64,000 bases of DNA from an uncultured Chloroflexota bacterium (GTDB taxonomy: Bacteria; Chloroflexota; Chloroflexia; Thermomicrobiales; UBA6265), in the NCBI GenBank assembly GCA_937870845.1, contig CALMZR010000216.1, positions 4,464-68,463 of the forward strand, in the 5' to 3' direction. The notes under the pieces are model-generated. The model saw only the letters and a list, made by a program, of their open reading frames with translations. It had not been told where the DNA came from and ran no database searches. This document shows, in pieces, positions 859 to 42,827 of this stretch. Both the position numbers and the translations under genes were made by a program. Position 1 is the first letter of the stretch. Each line of letters begins with the position of its first letter.

Positions 859-885
859 GGGTGATGGGGTGTATGGGTGCTCGGG
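859..885 (+). other. G-quadruplex-type motif GGGtgatGGGGtgtatGGGtgctcGGG in the rpsC-rplP spacer (sense strand)
   Basis: Four G3+ runs at 859-861, 866-869, 875-877 and 883-885, with loops of 4-5 nt, read directly from the sequence. Confidence 0.4.
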
Positions 886-973
886 TGATGAGGCGGTCGG
901 ATCGTGAAGTCAACGATCCTTCCACCCGAACCCCTTGTCACCCTGTCAGCGTCGAACCAGAGGAGCGTCGATC

Positions 974-8819: not shown

Positions 8820-9605
8820 GTGGCGATGACGATCAAGAACCAGGACGAGATCCGCAAGATGGGCGAAGCCGGCCAGGTGGTCGCGCTCATCCACGCCCGC
8901 ATCGAGGAGGCGATCGCGCCAGGGATGACGACCGGCGAGTTGGACGACATGGCCCGCGAAACGCTACGCGAAGCCGGCGCCATCTCGTCGTTCCTCCACT
9001 ACCCTGGCGGTCATGGCGCCCCGCCTTTTCCCGGCCACATCTGCACCTCAGTGAATGAAGAGATCGTCCATGGCATCCCCGGCAAGCGACGCCTTCGAGA
9101 CGGCGACGTCGTCTCGGTCGACGTGGGCGCGATCCTCGCCGGCTACCACGGCGACTCGGCCTGGACGTATGCCGTCGGACGCATCCCGGACGATGCCGCG
9201 CAACTGCTGCGCGACACCGAGGAGGCGCTCTATCGAGCAGTCGAAGCCGCGACGACGGGCAATCGGCTGGGCGCCGTTGGCCACGCGGTTGAGTCGTTCG
9301 CCCGTCGTCGCGGGCGCGGCGTGGTGCGCGAGTACGGCGGACACGGCATCGGGAGGCAGATGCACGAGGAGCCGCACGTGCCGAATCACGGCAACCCCGG
9401 CCGAGGCGTGCTCCTGCGCTCGGGGTTGACCTTGGCCATCGAGCCGATGCTCACGGCGGGGGGAGAGCACACGAAGACGCTCGCCGACGGATGGACCGTC
9501 GTCACCGCGGACGGATCGATCGCGGCCCATTTCGAGCACACGGTGGCGGTCAGCCCGCAGGGAGGGCGCGTGTTGACGCCTCGGCTGGCTCCCGTGTTAG
9601 AATAA
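8820..9605 (+). CDS. map: Type I methionine aminopeptidase
   Basis: ...KNQDEIRKMGEAGQVV..., metal ligands in a ...DVVSVDVGA... context, ...HGIGRQMHEEP..., ...LAIEPM... The start is ambiguous (GTG 8820 or ATG 8826). Confidence 0.95.
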   Translation: MAMTIKNQDEIRKMGEAGQVVALIHARIEEAIAPGMTTGELDDMARETLREAGAISSFLHYPGGHGAPPFPGHICTSVNEEIVHGIPGKRRLRDGDVVSVDVGAILAGYHGDSAWTYAVGRIPDDAAQLLRDTEEALYRAVEAATTGNRLGAVGHAVESFARRRGRGVVREYGGHGIGRQMHEEPHVPNHGNPGRGVLLRSGLTLAIEPMLTAGGEHTKTLADGWTVVTADGSIAAHFEHTVAVSPQGGRVLTPRLAPVLE

Positions 9606-30363: not shown

Positions 30364-31002
30364 ATGACGACGATGACAGCTGAGGAGAAGGAGGCGGCGC
30401 TGGCGCGCATCGCCGAGGAGATCAAGGTCTGCCTGCGCTGCGAGCTGCACAAGACGCGGACGAAGGCCGTTCCGGGGGAAGGACCGGCCGACGCGCGCAT
30501 CATGTTCATTGGCGAAGCGCCCGGCTGGAACGAAGACCAGCAGGGCCGGCCGTTCGTCGGGGCGGCAGGGAAGTTCCTTGATGAGCTACTGGCCTCCGCT
30601 GGTCTCCACCGGGGCGACGTCTTTATCACCAACATCGTCAAGTCCCGGCCACCTGGGAACCGTGACCCTCTCCCGGACGAGATCGCGGCTTGCGAGCCAT
30701 GGCTGGCGCGCCAGATCGAGATCATCGACCCTGACGTGATCGTGACCTTGGGTCGATTCTCGATGGCGCAGTGGTTTCCAGGGGAGCGCATCTCGAAGAT
30801 CCACGGCCAGCCGAAACGCGTTGGCCACAGGCTCTTCGTGCCGATGTATCACCCGGCGGCCGCCTTGCATCAGCAGGCGCTCAAGACCACGGTTCTGGAC
30901 GACTTCAGCCGCTTGCCGAAGTATTTGGCTGAAGCCGAGGCGCTGAAGCGGAGCGAAGAGGCGGCCGACGAGCCCCCCCCGCAGCAGATGGGAATGTTCT
31001 GA
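30364..31002 (+). CDS. Uracil-DNA glycosylase, family 4
   Basis: ...CLRCELHKTRTKAVPGEGPADARIMFIGEAPGWNEDQQGRPFVGAAGKFLD...TNIVKSRPPGNRDP...HPAA... are family-4 UDG motifs. Confidence 0.88.
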   Translation: MTTMTAEEKEAALARIAEEIKVCLRCELHKTRTKAVPGEGPADARIMFIGEAPGWNEDQQGRPFVGAAGKFLDELLASAGLHRGDVFITNIVKSRPPGNRDPLPDEIAACEPWLARQIEIIDPDVIVTLGRFSMAQWFPGERISKIHGQPKRVGHRLFVPMYHPAAALHQQALKTTVLDDFSRLPKYLAEAEALKRSEEAADEPPPQQMGMF

Positions 31003-31003
31003 C

Positions 31004-34000
31004 TCACCGATAATTGTGCGATGCTGGGGTGATCTGGCGAACGTGGTCGAGCCCGGTTTGGGCGTCTTCGCTCTGATGCGCGGCGACGTCGATCGCTTCG
31101 ATGTCGTGCTGTTCCAACTGGTCTGGAATCTGGAACTGAGCGCGGGCCTCGGAGAGTGGCCAGAGCCGCTCGGCGACGAGGTTGATGGTGTTGTTGCGCT
31201 TTTGCAGCACTCCCTCCACGACCACGAATGGCTCGCCGCGCACGACGTGCCGCTGTTCGCTGTAGAGATCCGGAAACACGACGACGTTGAGCAGCCCGTG
31301 CTCGTCTTCCAGCAGGAGGAAGGTGATCCCCTTGGCCGTCCCCGGCCGCTGCCGGCAGACGATGAGTCCCGCCACCTGGATGCGGGCGCCGTCGGCGATG
31401 CGCGGGATGTCGGCCATGGAGCGGATCGCGCGCGGCAGGCGGGGCCGCAGCAGCCCGAGCGGGTGGTAGCGCGGGGAGAGCCCCATGATGGCGTAGTCGC
31501 TGGCCATCTGCTCCCAGGGGCCCATCGGGCGCAGCTCGACCATGTCCTGCTCGACCGGCAAGGGGATGGGAAGCTGGCGGCCGGCCTCCTTGCCGTTCTT
31601 GCCGCCGAAGGCGCGCGCCGGCAGGAAGAGCCCGAGCTGCCAGAGCGCCTCGCGGCGACCGAGTCCGAAGCCGTCGGCCACCCCGACGGCGACCAGGCTC
31701 TCCGCCGCCTCGATCCGGAGAGGAATCCGGCGCATCACGTCGGCGAGCGATTGAAACGGTCCCCCGGCTTCGCGCTCGGCGACGAGGCGGGTGGCGACCT
31801 CCTCACCGACCTCCGCGACGTATCCCAGCCCGATGCGCACCGCGTTGCCGGCGACGGTGCATTTCACGCCGCTCTCGTTGACGTCGGGGGAGAGGATGCG
31901 CACGTGATTGCGGCGGGCGTCGTTGGTCAGGACGTGGGGCGGGTAGAAGCCCATCGGCTGGTTGTTGAGCAGGGCGCAGATGAACTCGGCCGGGTAGTAG
32001 CGCTTCAGCCACGACGATTGATAGGCGAGGATGGCGAAGGCGGCGGCGTGGCTCTTGGGGAAGCCGTACTCGGCAAAGCCGCGCAGCTTGGCGAAGACCT
32101 TCTCGGCCGTCGCCTCGTCGACGCCGAGCCCGAGGGCGCCGGCCCTGAACTGGTCCCAGAGGCGCGCCATCGCTTCCTTAGACCGCTTGCGCGTCATGGC
32201 GCGACGCAGTTGGTCCGCTTGGCCGGCGCTGAACCCGGCCAGGGCCATGGATACGCCCAGCACCTGCTCCTGGTAGAGGACCACGCCAAGTGTTTCGCGC
32301 AGCACCGGCTCCAGCCGCGGGTGGTCGTAGACGATGGGCGGCGCGGCGCCACGCCGGCTCAGCTCGCGGTGCTTGACATAGGGGTTGACCGCGCCGCCGA
32401 TGATCGGGCCGGGGCGGACGATGGCGACCTGGACGATGAGGTCTTGCAGGGTGCGCGGTTGCGTGCGCAGCAGGGTCTGGATCTGGGCCCGGCTCTCGAT
32501 CTGGAACGTGCCGACCGTGTCTCCGGCGCAGATCATGTCGTAGACCTCCTGGTCGGTGAAGTCGATGCGGCTCAGATCGACCGGCGCCTTGCCGTTGGCG
32601 GGGATGAGGCGCAGCGCCTCTTCCACCAACGAGAGCATGCCCAGCGCCAGGAAGTCGATCTTGACGAACCCTGCGTCGTCGCACGAATCCTTGTCCCACT
32701 GGCACAGGTAGCGCCCTGCCATCGAGGCCGGCTGCACCGGGACCAGATCGACCAGCGGGGCGGAGGAGATGATCATGCCGCCGGAGTGCTGGGAGACGTG
32801 GCGCGGGAACCCGGCCAGCTCCTGCGACAGCTCGATCAGGTAGCGCCAGGGCGGCGCCTCCAGCCGCGCCGCGTACTCCGGGATGCGGGCCAGCTCCAGC
32901 CCGAGATCGCCGGCCTGGCGCGGCTCGCTCAGTTTCGAGATGCGGTCGAGATCGGCGATCGGGATGCCGAGCGCCTTGCCCACGTCGCGCAGAGCAGAGC
33001 GCAGGCGGTAGGTGGGGAAGGCGCAGACGAGGGCGGCGCGGTCGGGGCCGAACCGCTCGTAGACGCGCTCGATGAGCTTCTCGCGGATTTCGCGGGGGAA
33101 ATCGAGGTCGATGTCGGGGATGGAGCTCATCTCGTCGTTGATGAAGCGGCCGAGCATCAGGTCATAGGCGAGCGGGTCGACGTGGGAGAGGCCGATCAGG
33201 TAGCAGACGATGGAGCCGACCGACGAACCGCGCCCGCGCCCCGGCGGCAGCGTGGCGGCGTAGCTATCCTCCCCCCGAATCTCGACCGCTGCCTCCCGCG
33301 CCAGTTCCAGCAGATCGCGGTAGAGGAGGAAGAAGCCGGACAGCCCGTGCCGGGCGACGAGCTGCAGCTCCTCCTCCAGCCGCGCTTCCGCCCGCGGCCA
33401 GCCTTCCCGGTTATAGCGCCGCCGCAGCTCCTCGCGACATATCCCTGCGAGGACATCGTCGGGCGTCTGCTCCGGCGGCGTGGGGTAGCGGGGGAAGAGG
33501 TAGGCGAGGTCGCGCGTGAGGTCGAAGGACGCGCAACGCTCGGCGATCACAAGGGTGTTGCGAAAGGCTTCCGGGTAGGCGGCGAAGCAGGCAGCCATCT
33601 CTCGTGGGGAGCGCAGGGCGAACTCCGCGTTCGGCAACCGATCGCGGTGGCAGCCGTCCAGCGTCGTGCGATGGCGGATGGCGACTAGCACATCCTGCAG
33701 GCGATGCCGCTCCCGGCGGTGGTAATGCACGTTGCCGGTGGCGACCGTGCAGAGTCCAGCATCTGTTGCCAGACGAGAGAGAGCGGCAACGCGGCGCGCA
33801 TCGCCGAAGACCTGGTTGTGTTGCAGCTCGATGGCCACGTTCTCCGCGCCGAACCACTCGACGTAACGCTTGAGGAGAACACGGGCATCCACCCAGCGCT
33901 CTTCGTCGACCAGGCGAGAGAGGGCTCCGCGGCGGCAGCCGGTGAGCAGGATCACCCCCTGGGCGTGCTCGGCGAGCAACGCCGGGTCGAGCCGTGGTTG

Positions 34001-34492
34001 CCGGTGCTCGTCTCGCTTCCAGACCTCACGCGGCGGGGCGAAGGAGGACGCGTCGCCCTCCGCGGGCACGTTGGGGCCGGCATATGCGGCGGTGATGAGC
34101 CGGCTGAGGTTGGCGTAGCCCTTCGCCGTCTCGGCGAGCAGGGTGAGATGGGAGCCGTCGTCCAGCGTCAGCTCGGCGCCGGTGATCGGGGCGATGTCGG
34201 CTGCCCGCGCCGCCCGCGCGAACTCCATGGCTCCGTGCAACCCGTTGTGGTCGGTAATCGCTAGCGCCCGGTACCCCAGCTCGGCGGCCCGCCCCACCAG
34301 CTCCTCCGGCAACGACGCCCCATCGAGGAAGGAGAACGCGGTGTGCAGGTGAAGCTCGACGTACGGAGGGTGACTGGGTGACAGGGTGTCAAGATGTTGG
34401 GGTGAAGAGGCGGGAGACGAGAGGTGGGCGGAGGCAGCGAGGGCGGGAGGGACTTGTGGGATTCCGGATCGCTCCGGCTCGTGATCCATCAC
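31004..34492 (-). CDS. dnaE2: Error-prone DNA polymerase DnaE2 (ImuC), Pol III alpha family
   Basis: PHP domain YVELHLHTAFSFLDGAS...AITDHNGLHGAMEF and a Pol III alpha core. It lies downstream of imuB behind a LexA box. Start is GTG 34492 or ATG 34489. Confidence 0.9.
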   Translation of the reverse strand: MMDHEPERSGIPQVPPALAASAHLSSPASSPQHLDTLSPSHPPYVELHLHTAFSFLDGASLPEELVGRAAELGYRALAITDHNGLHGAMEFARAARAADIAPITGAELTLDDGSHLTLLAETAKGYANLSRLITAAYAGPNVPAEGDASSFAPPREVWKRDEHRQPRLDPALLAEHAQGVILLTGCRRGALSRLVDEERWVDARVLLKRYVEWFGAENVAIELQHNQVFGDARRVAALSRLATDAGLCTVATGNVHYHRRERHRLQDVLVAIRHRTTLDGCHRDRLPNAEFALRSPREMAACFAAYPEAFRNTLVIAERCASFDLTRDLAYLFPRYPTPPEQTPDDVLAGICREELRRRYNREGWPRAEARLEEELQLVARHGLSGFFLLYRDLLELAREAAVEIRGEDSYAATLPPGRGRGSSVGSIVCYLIGLSHVDPLAYDLMLGRFINDEMSSIPDIDLDFPREIREKLIERVYERFGPDRAALVCAFPTYRLRSALRDVGKALGIPIADLDRISKLSEPRQAGDLGLELARIPEYAARLEAPPWRYLIELSQELAGFPRHVSQHSGGMIISSAPLVDLVPVQPASMAGRYLCQWDKDSCDDAGFVKIDFLALGMLSLVEEALRLIPANGKAPVDLSRIDFTDQEVYDMICAGDTVGTFQIESRAQIQTLLRTQPRTLQDLIVQVAIVRPGPIIGGAVNPYVKHRELSRRGAAPPIVYDHPRLEPVLRETLGVVLYQEQVLGVSMALAGFSAGQADQLRRAMTRKRSKEAMARLWDQFRAGALGLGVDEATAEKVFAKLRGFAEYGFPKSHAAAFAILAYQSSWLKRYYPAEFICALLNNQPMGFYPPHVLTNDARRNHVRILSPDVNESGVKCTVAGNAVRIGLGYVAEVGEEVATRLVAEREAGGPFQSLADVMRRIPLRIEAAESLVAVGVADGFGLGRREALWQLGLFLPARAFGGKNGKEAGRQLPIPLPVEQDMVELRPMGPWEQMASDYAIMGLSPRYHPLGLLRPRLPRAIRSMADIPRIADGARIQVAGLIVCRQRPGTAKGITFLLLEDEHGLLNVVVFPDLYSEQRHVVRGEPFVVVEGVLQKRNNTINLVAERLWPLSEARAQFQIPDQLEQHDIEAIDVAAHQSEDAQTGLDHVRQITPASHNYR

Positions 34493-34529
34493 CCTGTCAC
34501 CCTGTCACCCTAACACCCCGACACCCCTC
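34490..34529 (-). repeat. Five tandem 8-nt units (sense strand GGGGTGTC GGGGTGTT AGGGTGAC AGGGTGAC AGGGTG...), a G-quadruplex-type motif filling the spacer before dnaE2
   Basis: The plus strand reads CACCCTGT CACCCTGT CACCCTAA CACCCCGA CACCCC. The sense strand therefore has five G3-4 runs with 4-5 nt loops. Confidence 0.7.
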
Positions 34530-34815
34530 AATACGCCTGCTCGAACCAGCGATCCGCCATGAGGTCGTGGAAAAGCGTGCGCAGCGCGCCGGAGGGGAGG
34601 AGGACTTGAACATACCGACGGCGGATCGGCTCACGCCACCACTCGTCGTCGACGCGCCATTCATCCTGGACGCGCGCGATCGGATGGGAGCCACGGCGGT
34701 CGCGCAGGGCGATCGGCAGGCCGCTGCGCGCATCGAGCGTGACCTGGAGGGGGCGCGGCTGGTTCAGGGGTCGTACGCGATCAGGGCCTGTCTCCGTTCC
34801 GGCAGGCGCGACCAT
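34528..34815 (-). CDS. Hypothetical 95-aa W/R-rich protein between imuB and dnaE2 (possible detached ImuB C-terminal module)
   Basis: ATG 34815 is preceded by GGAGG with a 7-nt spacing. The ORF overlaps the imuB 3' end by 52 nt in the -1 frame. Its sequence ...VQDEWRVDDEWWREPIRRRYVQVLLPSGALRTLFHDLMADRWFEQAY looks like a real domain. Confidence 0.55.
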   Translation of the reverse strand: MVAPAGTETGPDRVRPLNQPRPLQVTLDARSGLPIALRDRRGSHPIARVQDEWRVDDEWWREPIRRRYVQVLLPSGALRTLFHDLMADRWFEQAY

Positions 34816-35957
34816 GGCTCAACCTCCGCGACGCGATAGAGACCGGATGCGCCGAACCGCTGCTTGAGCTGGCGGCTGGCCTCGGTCAGGCGCCAGGGGC
34901 GGCGGGAGTGGAAGCCGGGCAGCAGCTCCTGGCGGCTGGTGGCGTCGATCAGCCCGGAGAGCTCCAGGGTGAGGGCCTCGACCGGCCCCGGCAGGGTCAG
35001 CGCCTGCACGCGGTAGCCCAGCGCCTCGATGAGGCGCTTCTGGCCGCCGGGTTCGCGCAGAGTGGCGACCTGCTCCCATGATTGCCCCCCTTCCAGCGAC
35101 GCGCGCAGGCGCGCCTGTCGCACGTGGCGGTTGCCGAGCGCGGCCCGGTCAAAGGCGCGCAGCACCAGCCGGGTGATGGCGATGAGCAGCGTTTCCCGGC
35201 TGACGGCGGGCGCGGGCAGCGTCAGCGATTCGCTGACCGTCTCCGGTTGCGGCCGGGGCTGGACGCTCGACGGGTCGTTGCCACGGGCCAGCTCCCAGGC
35301 GCGCCGACCCTCCGCCCCGAACCGGGCCTGCACCGCTGCCGGGGGGAGCGCAGCGAGGTCGCCCAAGGTGCGCAACCCCAGCCGCTCCAGACGGCGCTGC
35401 TTGTCGGCAGGTAGCGGCAGCAGGGAGACCGGCGCCGCGGCGAGGAACGTCCGCTCCGCGCCGCAGGGGACATCCTGGACGGTCCCCGGCGCGGCGCGAT
35501 GGGCGGCGACCCGCGCCGTGAACGGGTTGGCGGCGACGCCGGCCCGTGGGCGCAGGATGGCCGGCACGGTCGCCAGCAAGCGCTCGGCAGCGACGTGCGG
35601 GGGACCGAGCCGGCGCTCCAGCCCGGTCAGGTCGATGGTGTAGCACCCCGGCAGCGCCGGGTCGATGGCGACCGCCGGGCTGAGTTCTTCCAATCCCGCG
35701 ACGATGCGCTCGGCGGCCGCGTTCTCGCGCACCGGATGAGGCGTCAGCACGATCGCCTCCGGGCAGAGGGCGACGGCCTCGCGCACCCCGAGACCGGACC
35801 GCACCCCATGCCCGGCCGCTTCCGGGGTCGCGTCGAGGACAATGGGGCGGCCGCCCTGCGCCGGACCCAGCACCAGCGGCGCGCCGTCCAGCTCCGGGCG
35901 TTCCAGCAGCGCCACGCGCAAGGCAAAATGGGGAATGACGAGACAGGCGATGGGCAC
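34764..35957 (-). CDS. imuB: ImuB, catalytically inactive Y-family polymerase-like protein
   Basis: GTG 35957 is preceded by GGAGGAGGG. The N-terminus (M)PIACLVIPHFALRVALLERPEL... has a Y-family fold but lacks the DxD catalytic acids. It lies directly upstream of dnaE2. Confidence 0.85.
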   Translation of the reverse strand: MPIACLVIPHFALRVALLERPELDGAPLVLGPAQGGRPIVLDATPEAAGHGVRSGLGVREAVALCPEAIVLTPHPVRENAAAERIVAGLEELSPAVAIDPALPGCYTIDLTGLERRLGPPHVAAERLLATVPAILRPRAGVAANPFTARVAAHRAAPGTVQDVPCGAERTFLAAAPVSLLPLPADKQRRLERLGLRTLGDLAALPPAAVQARFGAEGRRAWELARGNDPSSVQPRPQPETVSESLTLPAPAVSRETLLIAITRLVLRAFDRAALGNRHVRQARLRASLEGGQSWEQVATLREPGGQKRLIEALGYRVQALTLPGPVEALTLELSGLIDATSRQELLPGFHSRRPWRLTEASRQLKQRFGASGLYRVAEVEPWSRLPERRQALIAYDP

Positions 35958-36009
35958 GGTCCCTCCTCCGTGGGTCGAATCGCCGCGGGCGCGGGGAGCC
36001 CTTGCCCGG

Positions 36010-36038
36010 ATAATAGAACATATGTTCTCATTGCGCAA
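36010..36038 (-). promoter_or_regulatory. imuB-dnaE2 promoter
   Basis: The minus strand reads TTGCGC (36038-36033), a 17-nt spacer, then TATTAT (36015-36010). This is 53 nt upstream of the imuB GTG. Confidence 0.55.
36015..36028. promoter_or_regulatory. LexA (SOS) box AGAACATATGTTCT
   Basis: A perfect 14-bp palindrome of the GAAC-N4-GTTC class, lying between the -35 and -10 of the imuB promoter. Confidence 0.7.
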
Positions 36039-36059
36039 GAGTGGACCGCAAGGGCGTCG

Positions 36060-36068
36060 TGCTAGAAT
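36060..36068 (+). promoter_or_regulatory. Extended -10 element TGCTAGAAT (candidate ftsK promoter)
   Basis: A TGn+TAGAAT motif 84 nt upstream of the ftsK ATG. The same motif type recurs at other gene starts in this window. Confidence 0.35.
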
Positions 36069-36151
36069 CGTACAGAGTGAACGGACACCCTGATCGGTCA
36101 CGAGTTGAGCGTGGCCCATCTGGATGCGTCTCTCAGGGGCACAAATTGGCC

Positions 36152-38446
36152 ATGGCCACGACCACCCGAACGCGCGCGATGTCATCGTCCCACCGCGCCG
36201 CGCGGACCAACCGCGCATCCATGCGGCAGCGTGCGGCCCATTGGCGCGCCTCGATGCAGGCCTCCCTTCCCGAGTTCGCCGGCACGCCGCGCTTTCGCCG
36301 CGAGCTGCTCGGTGTCATCCTCATCCTGATGGCCCTCCTCAGCGCCTACGTCATCGGCCGCGGCGGTGACGAGGGGCGCCTCGTCTCGTGGTGGGGCCAC
36401 TCCCTCGACCGCTCGCTCGGCAACGCCGCATTTCTGGTTCCGGTGCTGCTCGGTCTCGCCGCATTGCGAGCCTTCGGCGGGCAAACGGGCCGGGTGCTGG
36501 AAGCGCGGCACTTCCTGGGAGGATTCGCCTTCGCTATCGCCGTCACCGGGTTGCTGCACCTTGGAGCCAGACCCGTCGGCACGCCGGCGGGTGGCGCGCT
36601 TGGCGCATCCGTCGCCGGCTTGGCCCTACGCTTCCTCGGCCAGTTCGGAGCTGGACTGGCGCTCTTCGCTGTGGGCGTGCTCGCCATCTTCCTCCTCGCC
36701 GGCAGCGACCTGCAGACCTTTGCCAACGACGTGCGGGCGCTTTGCCACGCCATCTGGGGCGCCATCGCCGCCCTGATCGCCGCCGCCGCCGGACTGGAAA
36801 GGCGGCTTCGCCGATTTGGGGCCGCATTTCGGGCAACCCCCGAACTCGAAGACCCCGTCGCCGCCGCCCACGTGGAGTCCCCCTCCGCCCCCCGCCAGCG
36901 ATCGTCCAAACCCCTCCTTCCGCCGGACAACGCCCCGCCGGCCCCGCCCGTCATCAACGTTCCCGCGCGCAAGGAACAACCGGCGCGCGCGGACGCCCAC
37001 CACCAAACCAACCCCCTCCACACACCGCTGGCTCCCACGGGCCCGCTGCCGCTCCCCGACGTCTCCCGTCTGGCGTACTACGACGACGTCGCCCCGGACA
37101 CGGCGAGCCTTCACGCCAAAGCGACGCTGATCGAAGAGACGCTGTCCAGCTTCAAGGTCGAGGCCAAGGTGCGCGAGATCAATCCCGGCCCCGCGGTGAC
37201 GCAGTTCGCCCTGGAGCCGGGCAACGGGGTCAAGGTCCGCCGCATCACCGAGCTGCAAAGCGACCTGGCCCTCGCCCTGGCCGCGCCGAGCATCCGCATC
37301 GAGGCCCCCATCCCCGGCTACGCCCGCGTCGGCCTGGAGATCCCCAACGCCCAGATCGCCACGGTCGGTCTGCGCGAGACGCTCGAATCGTCGACGTTCA
37401 CCAAGGGCAAGCACAAGCTGCCGATCCCGCTCGGGCGCGACGTCAATGGCCGCTACGTCGTCGGCGATCTGACGCGCATGCCGCACCTGCTCATCGCTGG
37501 CGCGACGGGTTCGGGCAAGAGCGTCTGCCTCAACGGCATCATTTCGACCTTCATCGCCACCCGATCGCCGGATGAGCTCAGGCTGCTGATGATCGACCCC
37601 AAGATGGTGGAGTTGACTGGCTACAATGGCGTACCGCACCTGCAAACCCCGGTCGTCACCGAGATGGACAAGGTCGTCGGCGCGTTGCGCCTGACCCTGC
37701 GCGAGATGGAGCGCCGCTACACGCTCTTCTCCAAGCTCGGCGTGCGCAACCTCGACGGCTACCGCATGAAAGTGGCGGACGAAGCCGGGGCGGAGGCGCT
37801 GCCGTACCTCGTCGTCATCATCGACGAGCTGGCCGATCTGATGATGACCGCCCCCGACGAGGTCGAAACGCTGCTGGTTCGCCTGGCCCAGATGGCGCGG
37901 GCCACCGGCATCCACCTCATCATCGCCACCCAGCGCCCGTCGGTCGATGTCCTCACCGGGCTGATCAAGGCCAACGTGCCGTCGCGCATCGCCTTCGCGG
38001 TCTCCTCGTTGACCGACAGCCGCGTCATCCTCGACATGCCCGGCGCCGAGCGCCTGCTCGGCCGCGGCGACATGCTCTTCCTCCCACCCGACGCCGCCAA
38101 GCCGCAGCGCATTCAGGGCGCGTTCATCGAGGACCAGGATGTCCACTACATCGTCCAGCATTGGTATCAAGTGGCGCCCGTGCCTCGCTACGCGCCGGAA
38201 TGGCTCGATCTCCCCGCCGCCGGAGGCAACGGCGACGACGATCTCGACGGCGAGGAAGACCCGCTGTTCGAGCAGGCGATCTCGATCGTCCGTCAACAAG
38301 GAACGGCTTCCGCCTCGATGCTGCAACGGCGGCTCCGCGTCGGCTACAACCGCGCCGCGCGCCTGATCGAACACATGGAAGTCGACGGGATCATTGGCCC
38401 GGCCGACGGCATCCGCGGCCGCCCGGTGTTAGGAGGCGAGGAGTAG
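36152..38446 (+). CDS. ftsK: DNA translocase FtsK/SpoIIIE
   Basis: N-terminal TM segments, a Pro-rich linker, the motor domain ...LLIAGATGSGKSVCLNGII... (Walker A) and ...LVVIIDELADLMM... (Walker B), and a C-terminal gamma wHTH ...ASASMLQRRLRVGYNRAARLIEHME... Confidence 0.93.
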   Translation: MATTTRTRAMSSSHRAARTNRASMRQRAAHWRASMQASLPEFAGTPRFRRELLGVILILMALLSAYVIGRGGDEGRLVSWWGHSLDRSLGNAAFLVPVLLGLAALRAFGGQTGRVLEARHFLGGFAFAIAVTGLLHLGARPVGTPAGGALGASVAGLALRFLGQFGAGLALFAVGVLAIFLLAGSDLQTFANDVRALCHAIWGAIAALIAAAAGLERRLRRFGAAFRATPELEDPVAAAHVESPSAPRQRSSKPLLPPDNAPPAPPVINVPARKEQPARADAHHQTNPLHTPLAPTGPLPLPDVSRLAYYDDVAPDTASLHAKATLIEETLSSFKVEAKVREINPGPAVTQFALEPGNGVKVRRITELQSDLALALAAPSIRIEAPIPGYARVGLEIPNAQIATVGLRETLESSTFTKGKHKLPIPLGRDVNGRYVVGDLTRMPHLLIAGATGSGKSVCLNGIISTFIATRSPDELRLLMIDPKMVELTGYNGVPHLQTPVVTEMDKVVGALRLTLREMERRYTLFSKLGVRNLDGYRMKVADEAGAEALPYLVVIIDELADLMMTAPDEVETLLVRLAQMARATGIHLIIATQRPSVDVLTGLIKANVPSRIAFAVSSLTDSRVILDMPGAERLLGRGDMLFLPPDAAKPQRIQGAFIEDQDVHYIVQHWYQVAPVPRYAPEWLDLPAAGGNGDDDLDGEEDPLFEQAISIVRQQGTASASMLQRRLRVGYNRAARLIEHMEVDGIIGPADGIRGRPVLGGEE

Positions 38447-42149: not shown

Positions 42150-42827
42150 TTGGCCGGGTTTTTTGTCGCGCTAGAAGGCATCGAAGGTTCGGGCAAGTCG
42201 ACCGTCGCGCGGCGCCTCGCGGATGCACTCCGCGTTCGAGGCCGTGCGGTCACGGCGACCCGGGAACCCGGCGGCGGCGTGATCGGTGAGCGCATTCGCG
42301 CCTTGCTCCTCGACAACGACGCCGGCGCCATGGCCGCCGAAACCGAAGCGCTCCTATTCGCGGCTTCGCGGGCGCAACTCGTAGCAGAGGTCATTCGGCC
42401 AGCGCTGGCGCGTGGCGACGTGGTCATTGTCGATCGCTTCGCCGACTCCTCATTGGCCTATCAATGGGGCGGCCGAGGGTTGCCCCTCGACGCGGTCACG
42501 GCGGTGCAGGCCCTGGCGACGGGCGGGTTAGAACCAGATGTAAAACTCCTGCTGGACCTTCCTGTAGCGTTGGGACTGCAACGTCGGTTTGCCCGAGGAA
42601 ACGAGACCAACCGCTTGGATCGAGAAACCATCGCGTTTCACGAACGGGTTCGTGAGGCTTACCATGCCCTCGTGGCCGCCCAACCAAATCGCTGGCGGGT
42701 GATCGATGCATCGCGGCCGGAGTCGGACGTGTGGTCGGACGTGTGGTCCGCCGTGAGGCAATTGGATTCGGTCAAGACCGGGTCCGCCGCGGAAGCCGAG
42801 GTCTCGCGGCTGGGAACGAGATCGTGA
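42150..42827 (+). CDS. tmk: Thymidylate kinase
   Basis: (M)AGFFVALEGIEGSGKSTVARRLA...TREPGG...DRFADSSLAYQ... TTG start. Confidence 0.93.
   Translation: MAGFFVALEGIEGSGKSTVARRLADALRVRGRAVTATREPGGGVIGERIRALLLDNDAGAMAAETEALLFAASRAQLVAEVIRPALARGDVVIVDRFADSSLAYQWGGRGLPLDAVTAVQALATGGLEPDVKLLLDLPVALGLQRRFARGNETNRLDRETIAFHERVREAYHALVAAQPNRWRVIDASRPESDVWSDVWSAVRQLDSVKTGSAAEAEVSRLGTRS

Follow-up and report, generated by a model that had tools for sequence, protein, structure and literature searches.

This study concerns the start of dnaE2, an error-prone DNA polymerase gene, in a 64,000-nucleotide (nt) stretch of bacterial DNA (the window), and a palindromic repeat element found there. The dnaE2 gene lies at positions 31004-34489 on the minus strand and was assigned by its family profile and PHP domain; in a profile search this open reading frame (ORF) matched NF004225 with 1012.8 bits (cut-off 939). 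The match to the profile begins at residue 40, and the PHP domain follows at residue 45. The organism was assigned to Thermomicrobiales from the relatives of its DnaE2. No exact match was found for the window DnaE2 with either start codon, and P0001, a 99% relative, was used to stand for it. Upstream on the same strand lies a conserved ORF of 95 amino acids (aa) at 34528-34815, recognized from its homologs and synteny, whose TGA stop codon (34528-34530, minus strand) abuts the element. It was found that the element occupies the entire stretch from this stop codon to the conserved residues at which the PHP domain of DnaE2 begins.

Architecture of the dnaE2 element

On the minus (sense) strand, the junction reads TGA (34530-34528), G, GGGTGTCG GGGTGTTA GGGTGACA GGGTGACA GGGTG and ATG (34489-34487). 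The 5′ arm (34490-34527, minus strand) is G-rich and consists of five octamer units of the GGGTGNNN type, which begin 1 nt past the upstream stop and run up to the dnaE2 start. Tandem Repeats Finder reported a period of 8 with 4.8 copies and 86% matches at 34489-34526, in agreement with an earlier reading of this DNA from its letters alone (the sequence-only reading), which had seen five 8-nt units in the spacer. The TGAs in units 3, 4 and 5 occupy all three reading frames. A small central hairpin, GGATCACGAGCCGGAGCGATCC (34466-34487, minus strand), follows. The C-rich 3′ arm (34367-34404, minus strand), made of NNNCACCC units complementary to the 5′ arm, coincides with dnaE2 codons 29-41 and ends 3 nt ahead of the Tyr codon of the conserved YVELHLH motif of the PHP domain; Tandem Repeats Finder gave period 8 and 2.8 copies at 34367-34388. 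The best-paired part of the arms (34367-34388 and 34490-34511) is a 22-nt inverted repeat with 95% complementarity, its arms being 101 nt apart and its 3′ arm lying in codons 34-41, just as the sequence-only reading had described it with one mismatch. A looser pairing of the arms extends over 33 nt at 79%. This inverted repeat ranks best among the long-range inverted repeats of the window.

The motif GGGTGNNNGGGTG occurs nine times in the window against 0.10 expected, all at two loci, and the 12-mer GTCACCCTGTCA, with one mismatch allowed, occurs five times against 0.19 expected. Thus, a chance origin of the repeats is excluded. The five G-runs of the 5′ arm are 4, 4, 3, 3 and 3 residues long with loops of 4-5 nt, so that the G-quadruplex (G4) pattern claimed for the sense strand does fit the G3+N1-7 consensus.

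A GTG (34492-34490) and the ATG (34489-34487), which together span 34487-34492 on the minus strand, are the sole in-frame canonical starts of dnaE2. The GTG is part of the last GGGTG unit, at the same position as the GTG start in four contigs of relatives (L140, L153, L185 and L133), and an in-frame TGA is found 15 nt upstream of the two starts. An in-frame TAG at 34512-34510 rules out that ribosomes read through the upstream TGA as far as the TGATG stop/start overlap. Since there is no other in-frame start and the profile match begins at residue 40, the 3′ arm is, as judged from the sequence, coding; it is predicted to give DnaE2 a non-conserved, element-derived N-terminal extension of 41 residues (residues 1-41; predicted peptide MDHEPERSGIPQVPP...). 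No reading frame of a CACCC array contains a stop codon. The DnaE2 proteins of close relatives carry variable low-complexity tails (SPITHHPSP, SRLLDSSTPRL) that are translated repeats, CACCC in the case of SPITHHPSP, and distant orthologs begin with M-x-x-Y-[VA]-E-L-H.

Predicted folding of the dnaE2 junction

The dnaE2 junction was predicted to fold into a long interrupted hairpin reaching from the upstream stop to the PHP-domain codons (-81.6 kcal/mol, z-score -3.2), and none of the shuffled sequences was as stable. In the full context, every G-run, including those adjacent to the start, has a probability of about 0 of being unpaired. This prediction is consistent with the earlier proposal that the dnaE2 start and the only purines resembling a Shine-Dalgarno (SD) sequence are buried in the stem. 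The sequence-only reading had further proposed that the RNA forms either a G4 or the stem, and it had recommended RNA folding and G4 predictors as a check. When G4 formation was allowed, the minimum-energy fold in the full context stayed the hairpin (-90.2 kcal/mol). In the isolated 5′ arm, the G4 was marginally favoured (-12.1 vs -11.7). Thus, the stem half of that proposal is borne out by the prediction, and the G4 half applies to the isolated arm only.

Neither the dnaE2 locus nor the second locus described below has the U-tract of an intrinsic terminator or a promoter-like site. In a search against Rfam, only tRNAs reached the gathering threshold in the window. EFASI (RF02957) reached 24.4 bits, below its threshold of 51.2, in an alignment with many non-canonical pairs and was rejected as a generic match to a long hairpin; other sub-threshold matches were generic hairpins of miRNA precursors. 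Another idea considered is that GGGTGAT units might act as SD mimics by base pairing to the 3′ tail of 16S rRNA (AUCACCU), with CACCC arms as mimics of the anti-SD sequence; the window is without an rRNA gene.

A second copy in the rpsC-rplP spacer

It was revealed that every GGGTGNNN array of the window sits either at dnaE2 or in the spacer between the ribosomal protein (r-protein) genes rpsC and rplP. This spacer is 116 nt long and reads TAG A GGGTGATG GGGTGTAT GGGTGCTC GGGTGATG ... GGATCGTGAAGTCAACGATCC ... CACCCGAA CCCCTTGT CACCCTGTCA. The second copy (859-948) is built like the dnaE2 element. Its 5′ arm, GGGTGATG GGGTGTAT GGGTGCTC GGGTGATG (859-890, plus strand), begins 1 nt past the rpsC stop codon (TAG, 855-857). 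Its central hairpin, GGATCGTGAAGTCAACGATCC (899-919, plus strand), is of the GGATC..GATCC type and is resembled by the central hairpin at dnaE2; hairpins of this type are not widespread in the window. Its C-rich 3′ arm, CACCCGAA CCCCTTGT CACCCTGTCA (923-948, plus strand), was recognized from the sequence. The copy is predicted to form a single hairpin (-50.2 kcal/mol, z-score -2.25), and the SD sequence (GAGGAG) and the ATG (974) of rplP lie outside it. The sequence-only reading had noticed a shared 12-mer at 937-948 and suggested a dispersed repeat family. The exact copy of the 12-mer is indeed there and the second locus supports the suggestion, but what lies in this spacer is a complete second element.

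Two other repeats of the window were noted. Another good inverted repeat lies at 9247-9313, with arms of 22 nt that are 86% complementary and a loop of 23 nt, and a 12-nt tandem repeat, GTCGGACGTGTG, is found at 42722-42755 with 2.2-2.8 copies and up to 100% matches.

Variation of the element among relatives

Is the element conserved at the dnaE2 start? I compared orthologous imuB-dnaE2 junctions of eight close lineages at 82-90% DnaE2 identity, imuB being the gene upstream of the 95-aa ORF. In L140 (90%), the TGA is followed by nested 7-mer and 8-mer GGGTG arrays, a core and inverted CACCC arrays, which are predicted to form a near-perfect hairpin (z-score -9.75). L153, L190 and L191 (86-88%) have an element made of other units (z-score -6.5), and L185 (87%) has a short version of the element (z-score -4.8). 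L133 (82%) has no element; its junction reads TAA GG GTG CCA ACT CCG TAC, with the GTG start within a single GGGTG, and the element-free junction of this kind is TAAGGGTGCCAACTCCGTAC. L186 (82%) has three CACCCAT units only, a TTG start overlapping the stop codon, and no fold. In L187 and L188 (82-83%), G/A-rich and then C/T-rich arrays of other units are present which do not pair (z-scores +1.5 and +2.6). Thus, the element is missing or its arms do not pair in four of the eight close lineages. In more distant relatives, other 7-mers (AGTGCCA/TCGGCAC, CTGACGG) or just the stop, a few bases and ATG were found, and distant orthologs have a spacer of 1-5 nt from stop to ATG. Neither the presence of the element nor a covarying structure is maintained across the orthologous leaders, as would be expected of a conserved cis-regulatory leader of dnaE2; the conservation that the sequence-only reading had named as the check on its proposal is not seen at 82-90% identity.

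The distance from the GTG to the Tyr codon is 129 nt in the window, L140 and L153 alike. Over these 129 nt, the window and L140 have an ungapped identity of 50%, which is 5 standard deviations above shuffled sequences. These data indicate that the two dnaE2 elements are orthologous and have diverged in place. At the level of strains, copies of the element are identical. Phase variation by the number of units was considered as well and is ruled out by near-identical strains with identical arrays.

The other locus varies, too. L194 (L16 92% identical) has a palindrome of 7-mer units, GGGTGTC/GACACCC, at the same site in the rpsC-rplP spacer (-73 kcal/mol), and L192, L193 and L195-L197 have a spacer of 57 nt with a plain short hairpin. 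Sequence comparison thus indicates a fast-evolving element whose form differs among relatives at both loci. Because the junctions of relatives vary so much, the imuB-dnaE2 junction is best read as a hot spot for such elements, with no conservation of either the sequence or the hairpin.

Further palindromes were observed in these relatives. In L194 (2531-2707), the rpsQ-rplN spacer is expanded to about 175 nt and holds a palindrome, TATAGGGGCGACGCCTGCGTCGCCC...GGGCGGCGCCTGCGTCGCCCCTA, the corresponding spacer of the window being short; this is a sign that r-protein operon spacers of the clade may collect palindromic inserts. In L127 (2230-2345) and L131 (about 420-540), the imuB-dnaE2 junction holds a different palindrome, which is near-perfect and about 110 nt long (CTGTCGTCCTGAGC.GCAGCGAAGGACCTCTCC...) and has z-scores of -11 to -13. 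It looks like a member of another dispersed palindromic family, and it is followed by 7-mer arrays: AGTGCCA/TCGGCAC and CATCACG in L127, and CTGACGG/CTGATCG in L131.

Distribution across phyla and relation to known repeats

Species-representative genomes were scanned for runs of at least four GGGTGNNN units, and at least 119 stretches were found. Among the matches listed, such arrays occur in many phyla, notably in Chloroflexota, Cyanobacteria, Longimicrobium, actinomycetes and Planctomycetota. At these loci (at least 119), a long ORF ends between -30 and +16 nt from the array start for 35% of the arrays, compared with 6.6% of control positions. The following three features likewise refer to the matches listed. 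The ORF ends peak where the TGA of the first or second GGGTGA unit is itself the stop codon, and GGGTGA makes up 46% of the units. All 10 close pairs of arrays have the G-rich array first and none has the C-rich array first, and four Thermomicrobiales cases agree with this polarity. Arrays of four units are the commonest, a count biased by the scan, which demanded at least four. Long pure arrays of 12-16 GGGTGNNN units were seen in Micromonospora, Kitasatospora, Rubrivirga and Caldilineaceae. In many intergenic regions of Chloroflexota and cyanobacteria, tandem arrays of several different 7-8-nt units adjoin one another; for example, GGGTGAAC lies beside CATCCCATCATCTCGC-type units in L094, and L025 has AATCCAAA units.

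G-rich heptamer simple sequence repeats (SSRs), GGGNATC and GGGGA(C/T)T, have been described in Xanthomonas and Nostoc, with four units preferred (Rehm et al. 2015, PMC4692102). They lie between co-oriented ORFs; those on the coding strand follow stop codons at 0-50 bp, and those on the non-coding strand precede ORFs. They vary between related species, form G4 in vitro, and may form stem-loops when inverted, and no function is known for them (PMC4692102). Other heptamers on record are the (GATAGRA)n arrays of Chloroflexus (PMC6749651) and the TAACTGA heptamers near start codons, including those of r-protein operons, for which a role in translation has been proposed (PMC4679880). G4-hairpin switch motifs have been proposed for E. 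coli (PMC5100583), and the G-runs described here could likewise adopt either a G4 or a hairpin.

The present element resembles the heptamer SSR class in its head-to-tail units of 6-9 nt, each with one tract of at least three G residues (4.8 and 2.8 copies at dnaE2, four at rpsC-rplP), in its arrays of about 4-5 units, and in having at least four such tracts with short loops (five units at dnaE2, four at rpsC-rplP). Its position is co-oriented and intergenic, both position rules of the class hold at once, and both window copies begin 1 nt past a stop. The length and sequence also vary at the same locus between related species, and there is potential for both G4 and stem-loop. It differs in its period of 8 instead of 7, its GGGTGNNN unit and its host in Thermomicrobiales (Chloroflexota). 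Moreover, its arrays are systematically paired into a G-first palindrome of 90-185 nt, and one arm is coding. The evidence fits membership in this known class of intergenic SSRs with G-rich units of 6-9 nt, the 8-nt period and the G-first pairing being features of its own.

The STRR heptamers of cyanobacteria, reportedly described by Mazel et al. in 1990, are alike in being dispersed, hairpin-capable tandem arrays (of 7 nt) that are intergenic within operons and are not known to have a function. They differ in period, sequences and taxon, as STRR are heptanucleotides of heterocystous species and the present arrays have a period of 8 in Thermomicrobiales. REP sequences are high-copy single palindromes of 20-40 bp that are headed by GTAG or CGTC and associated with RAYT transposases. 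Palindromes of the REP, BIME and REPIN families fold in mRNA and can alter the relative expression of flanking genes. The present element shares with them a dispersed, species-specific, intergenic position within operons, but it has arms of tandem octamers, and GTAG or CGTC does not stand at the beginning of either copy. It also resembles hairpins that sequester a start codon or ribosome binding site, since the start and the SD-like sequence would pair with a downstream coding segment and the foot of the stem lies where the upstream ORF ends. It differs from them in that the dnaE2 structure, known here from the sequence and from folding prediction, is not conserved in orthologs.

Gene neighbourhood

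What the sequence-only reading had called a small upstream ORF is present, with its stop abutting the element, and it is more than that reading supposed. The 95-aa ORF lies in the -1 frame relative to imuB and overlaps its 3′ end by 52 nt. Its protein has the motif DEWWREPIRRRYVQV...DRWFEQAY and 57 homologs, nearly all of 93-95 aa and none with a Pfam domain (0/57). In all lineages examined, the ATG or GTG start of the ORF lies within conserved Pro-Trp codons of imuB (CCATGG or CCGTGG). Its conservation at near-constant length in 57 homologs therefore indicates a real gene whose stop abuts the element. The protein had no match in Pfam or NCBIfam, and a sequence search of PDB gave only spurious matches. 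I take it to be similar to the C-terminal region of fused ImuB proteins; the separate protein of this clade may thus be a domain that is fused in other ImuB proteins. It was also considered whether programmed -1 frameshifting links imuB to the 95-aa ORF, which is unlikely because the slip site C CCC TGA varies (GTC TGA, GCC TGA in L133 and L185); it is further disfavoured by the conservation, instead, of the ATG/GTG within the Pro-Trp codons.

The imuB-like gene (34764-35957, minus strand) encodes a Y-family polymerase of 397 aa with an IMS domain; its GTG start at 35957 was set by comparison with orthologs. A 484-aa ORF call, which runs through the palindrome GAACATATGTTC, is probably too long. 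This palindrome (36016-36027) resembles a LexA or Cheo box and lies about 59 nt ahead of the imuB start, in the spacer between the divergent genes ftsK and imuB. The order of imuB (397 aa), the overlapping 95-aa ORF and dnaE2 is kept in all related contigs fetched. In the window (30364-38446), ftsK lies divergently upstream of the cassette, and downstream of it the opposite strand carries a UDG-family gene; this synteny is conserved in relatives (L185-L188). No imuA-like gene adjoins the cassette in the window region or in L185-L188. In L129 (2200-2500; DnaE2 84% identity), a gene other than imuB or the 95-aa ORF is directly upstream of dnaE2, which has a plain ATG ACT GAC TAC start.

Discussion

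The feature at the dnaE2 start is best explained as one copy of a lineage-specific palindromic element with G-rich period-8 arms, a member of the known SSR class, whose effect on DnaE2 would be a tolerated by-product of its position. I put the probability of this explanation at roughly 0.6. A dedicated, conserved regulator of DnaE2 is not supported. From the predicted fold, translation of DnaE2 may plausibly be damped or coupled. The transcript would form a long imperfect hairpin whose 5′ arm holds the SD-like purines and the GTG/ATG and whose 3′ arm is codons 29-41. Free 30S binding at dnaE2 would be hindered, so that DnaE2 synthesis might be low and reliant on ribosomes coming from the upstream ORF. 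A ribosome terminating at 34528 would open just the outer 12-15 nt of the stem, and coupling would therefore be partial at best. The C-rich arm probably joined the coding region because it has no stop codons and was absorbed as a non-conserved tail rich in Pro, Ser and His. The effect on DnaE2 would then follow from where such elements settle or expand, with no conserved dedicated regulator involved.

Several observations weigh against this explanation. The hairpin has been kept through sequence turnover in four of the eight lineages, which could reflect selection for a regulatory stem, and the identical 129-nt distance from GTG to Tyr could likewise suggest such selection. The z-scores of the window copies are modest (-2.5 to -3.2 at dnaE2 and -1.9 to -2.25 at rpsC-rplP). 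In addition, the element is found at only two loci in 64 kb and nowhere else in about 90 kb of related contigs.

The sequence-only reading had seen the leader as a dedicated DnaE2 switch, toggling between an RNA G4 and a long-range stem that buries the start, with ribosomes terminating upstream opening the stem in an obligatory coupling beyond LexA control. The predicted stem does contain the start and the SD-like purines, its base lies 1 nt past the upstream stop, hairpins of other sequence are retained in L140, L153 and L185, and the GTG keeps an equal distance in three species. The LexA-like box GAACATATGTTC upstream of imuB marks the operon as SOS-type and so bears out the LexA layer, but a second layer specific to DnaE2 is hard to maintain when an r-protein operon holds the same type of element. 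L133 and L186 lack the element, the arms in L187 and L188 do not pair, and the G4 is disfavoured once the C-rich arm is present. Distance would also speak against obligatory coupling: the start codon lies 38 nt from the stop, which exceeds the likely reach of a terminating ribosome into the stem, and the TAG at 34512-34510 precludes read-through to the TGATG overlap. I therefore regard such a switch as improbable.

It could also be argued that the arrays are neutral products of replication slippage, i.e., mutational debris under weak selection, whose hairpin and G4 have no effect on expression. The differences in units and copy numbers between species, the species without an element, the non-conserved encoded extension and the related heptamer class without a function found are all compatible with this. 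What speaks for constraint is the G-first polarity (10:0 among the matches listed) together with the stop adjacency across phyla; moreover, strain copies are identical, and arm complementarity has been maintained through turnover (L140). A stem of such predicted stability at a start codon would hardly lack an effect. Pure neutrality is thus doubtful, to about the same degree as the switch.

An equally slim chance may be given to the idea that, in a subset of Thermomicrobiales, a self-renewing G-first octamer palindrome has been co-opted as a gate of the SOS mutasome. The start would be hidden until upstream translation or a G4 of the 5′ arm opens the hairpin, the stem would have been selected through complete turnover (window, L140, L153 and L185), and the 3′ arm would double as a polymerase tail.

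Least likely of all is a small non-autonomous mobile element, resembling a miniature inverted-repeat transposable element or a REPIN, with terminal inverted repeats built of repeats and independent insertions at dnaE2 and rpsC-rplP: inverted arms are present, both copies share the unit type, the GGATC...GATCC core hairpin and the CTTGNCACCCTGTCA motif, units seem genome-specific (the GACACCC 7-mer occurs at the dnaE2 junction of L140 and in the rps spacer of L194, which may be from different genomes), and presence varies among relatives, but no target-site duplication is visible at either of the two diverged copies, both are without a GTAG or CGTC head, the window and L140 elements at dnaE2 are orthologous and have diverged in place, the single GGGTG unit with the start codon in L133 resembles a seed or remnant, and a search of about 447 kb of loci, of which about 90 kb are from close relatives, gave no further copies.

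If the element is a lineage-specific SSR palindrome as proposed, what looks like a leader structure of dnaE2 is a generic repeat element, which calls for caution against over-reading RNA structures seen in single genomes. The class of G-rich 6-9-nt intergenic repeats would now extend to Chloroflexota. Across phyla, two features are added to it: the strict G-first polarity of paired arrays, and the abutment on stop codons, with the array often supplying the stop. The dnaE2 copy would also be a clear example of how a repeat can become part of a coding region, here as a disordered N-terminal tail. If it is true that the hairpin throttles DnaE2 translation, the element would give this lineage its own means to keep a mutagenic polymerase scarce.

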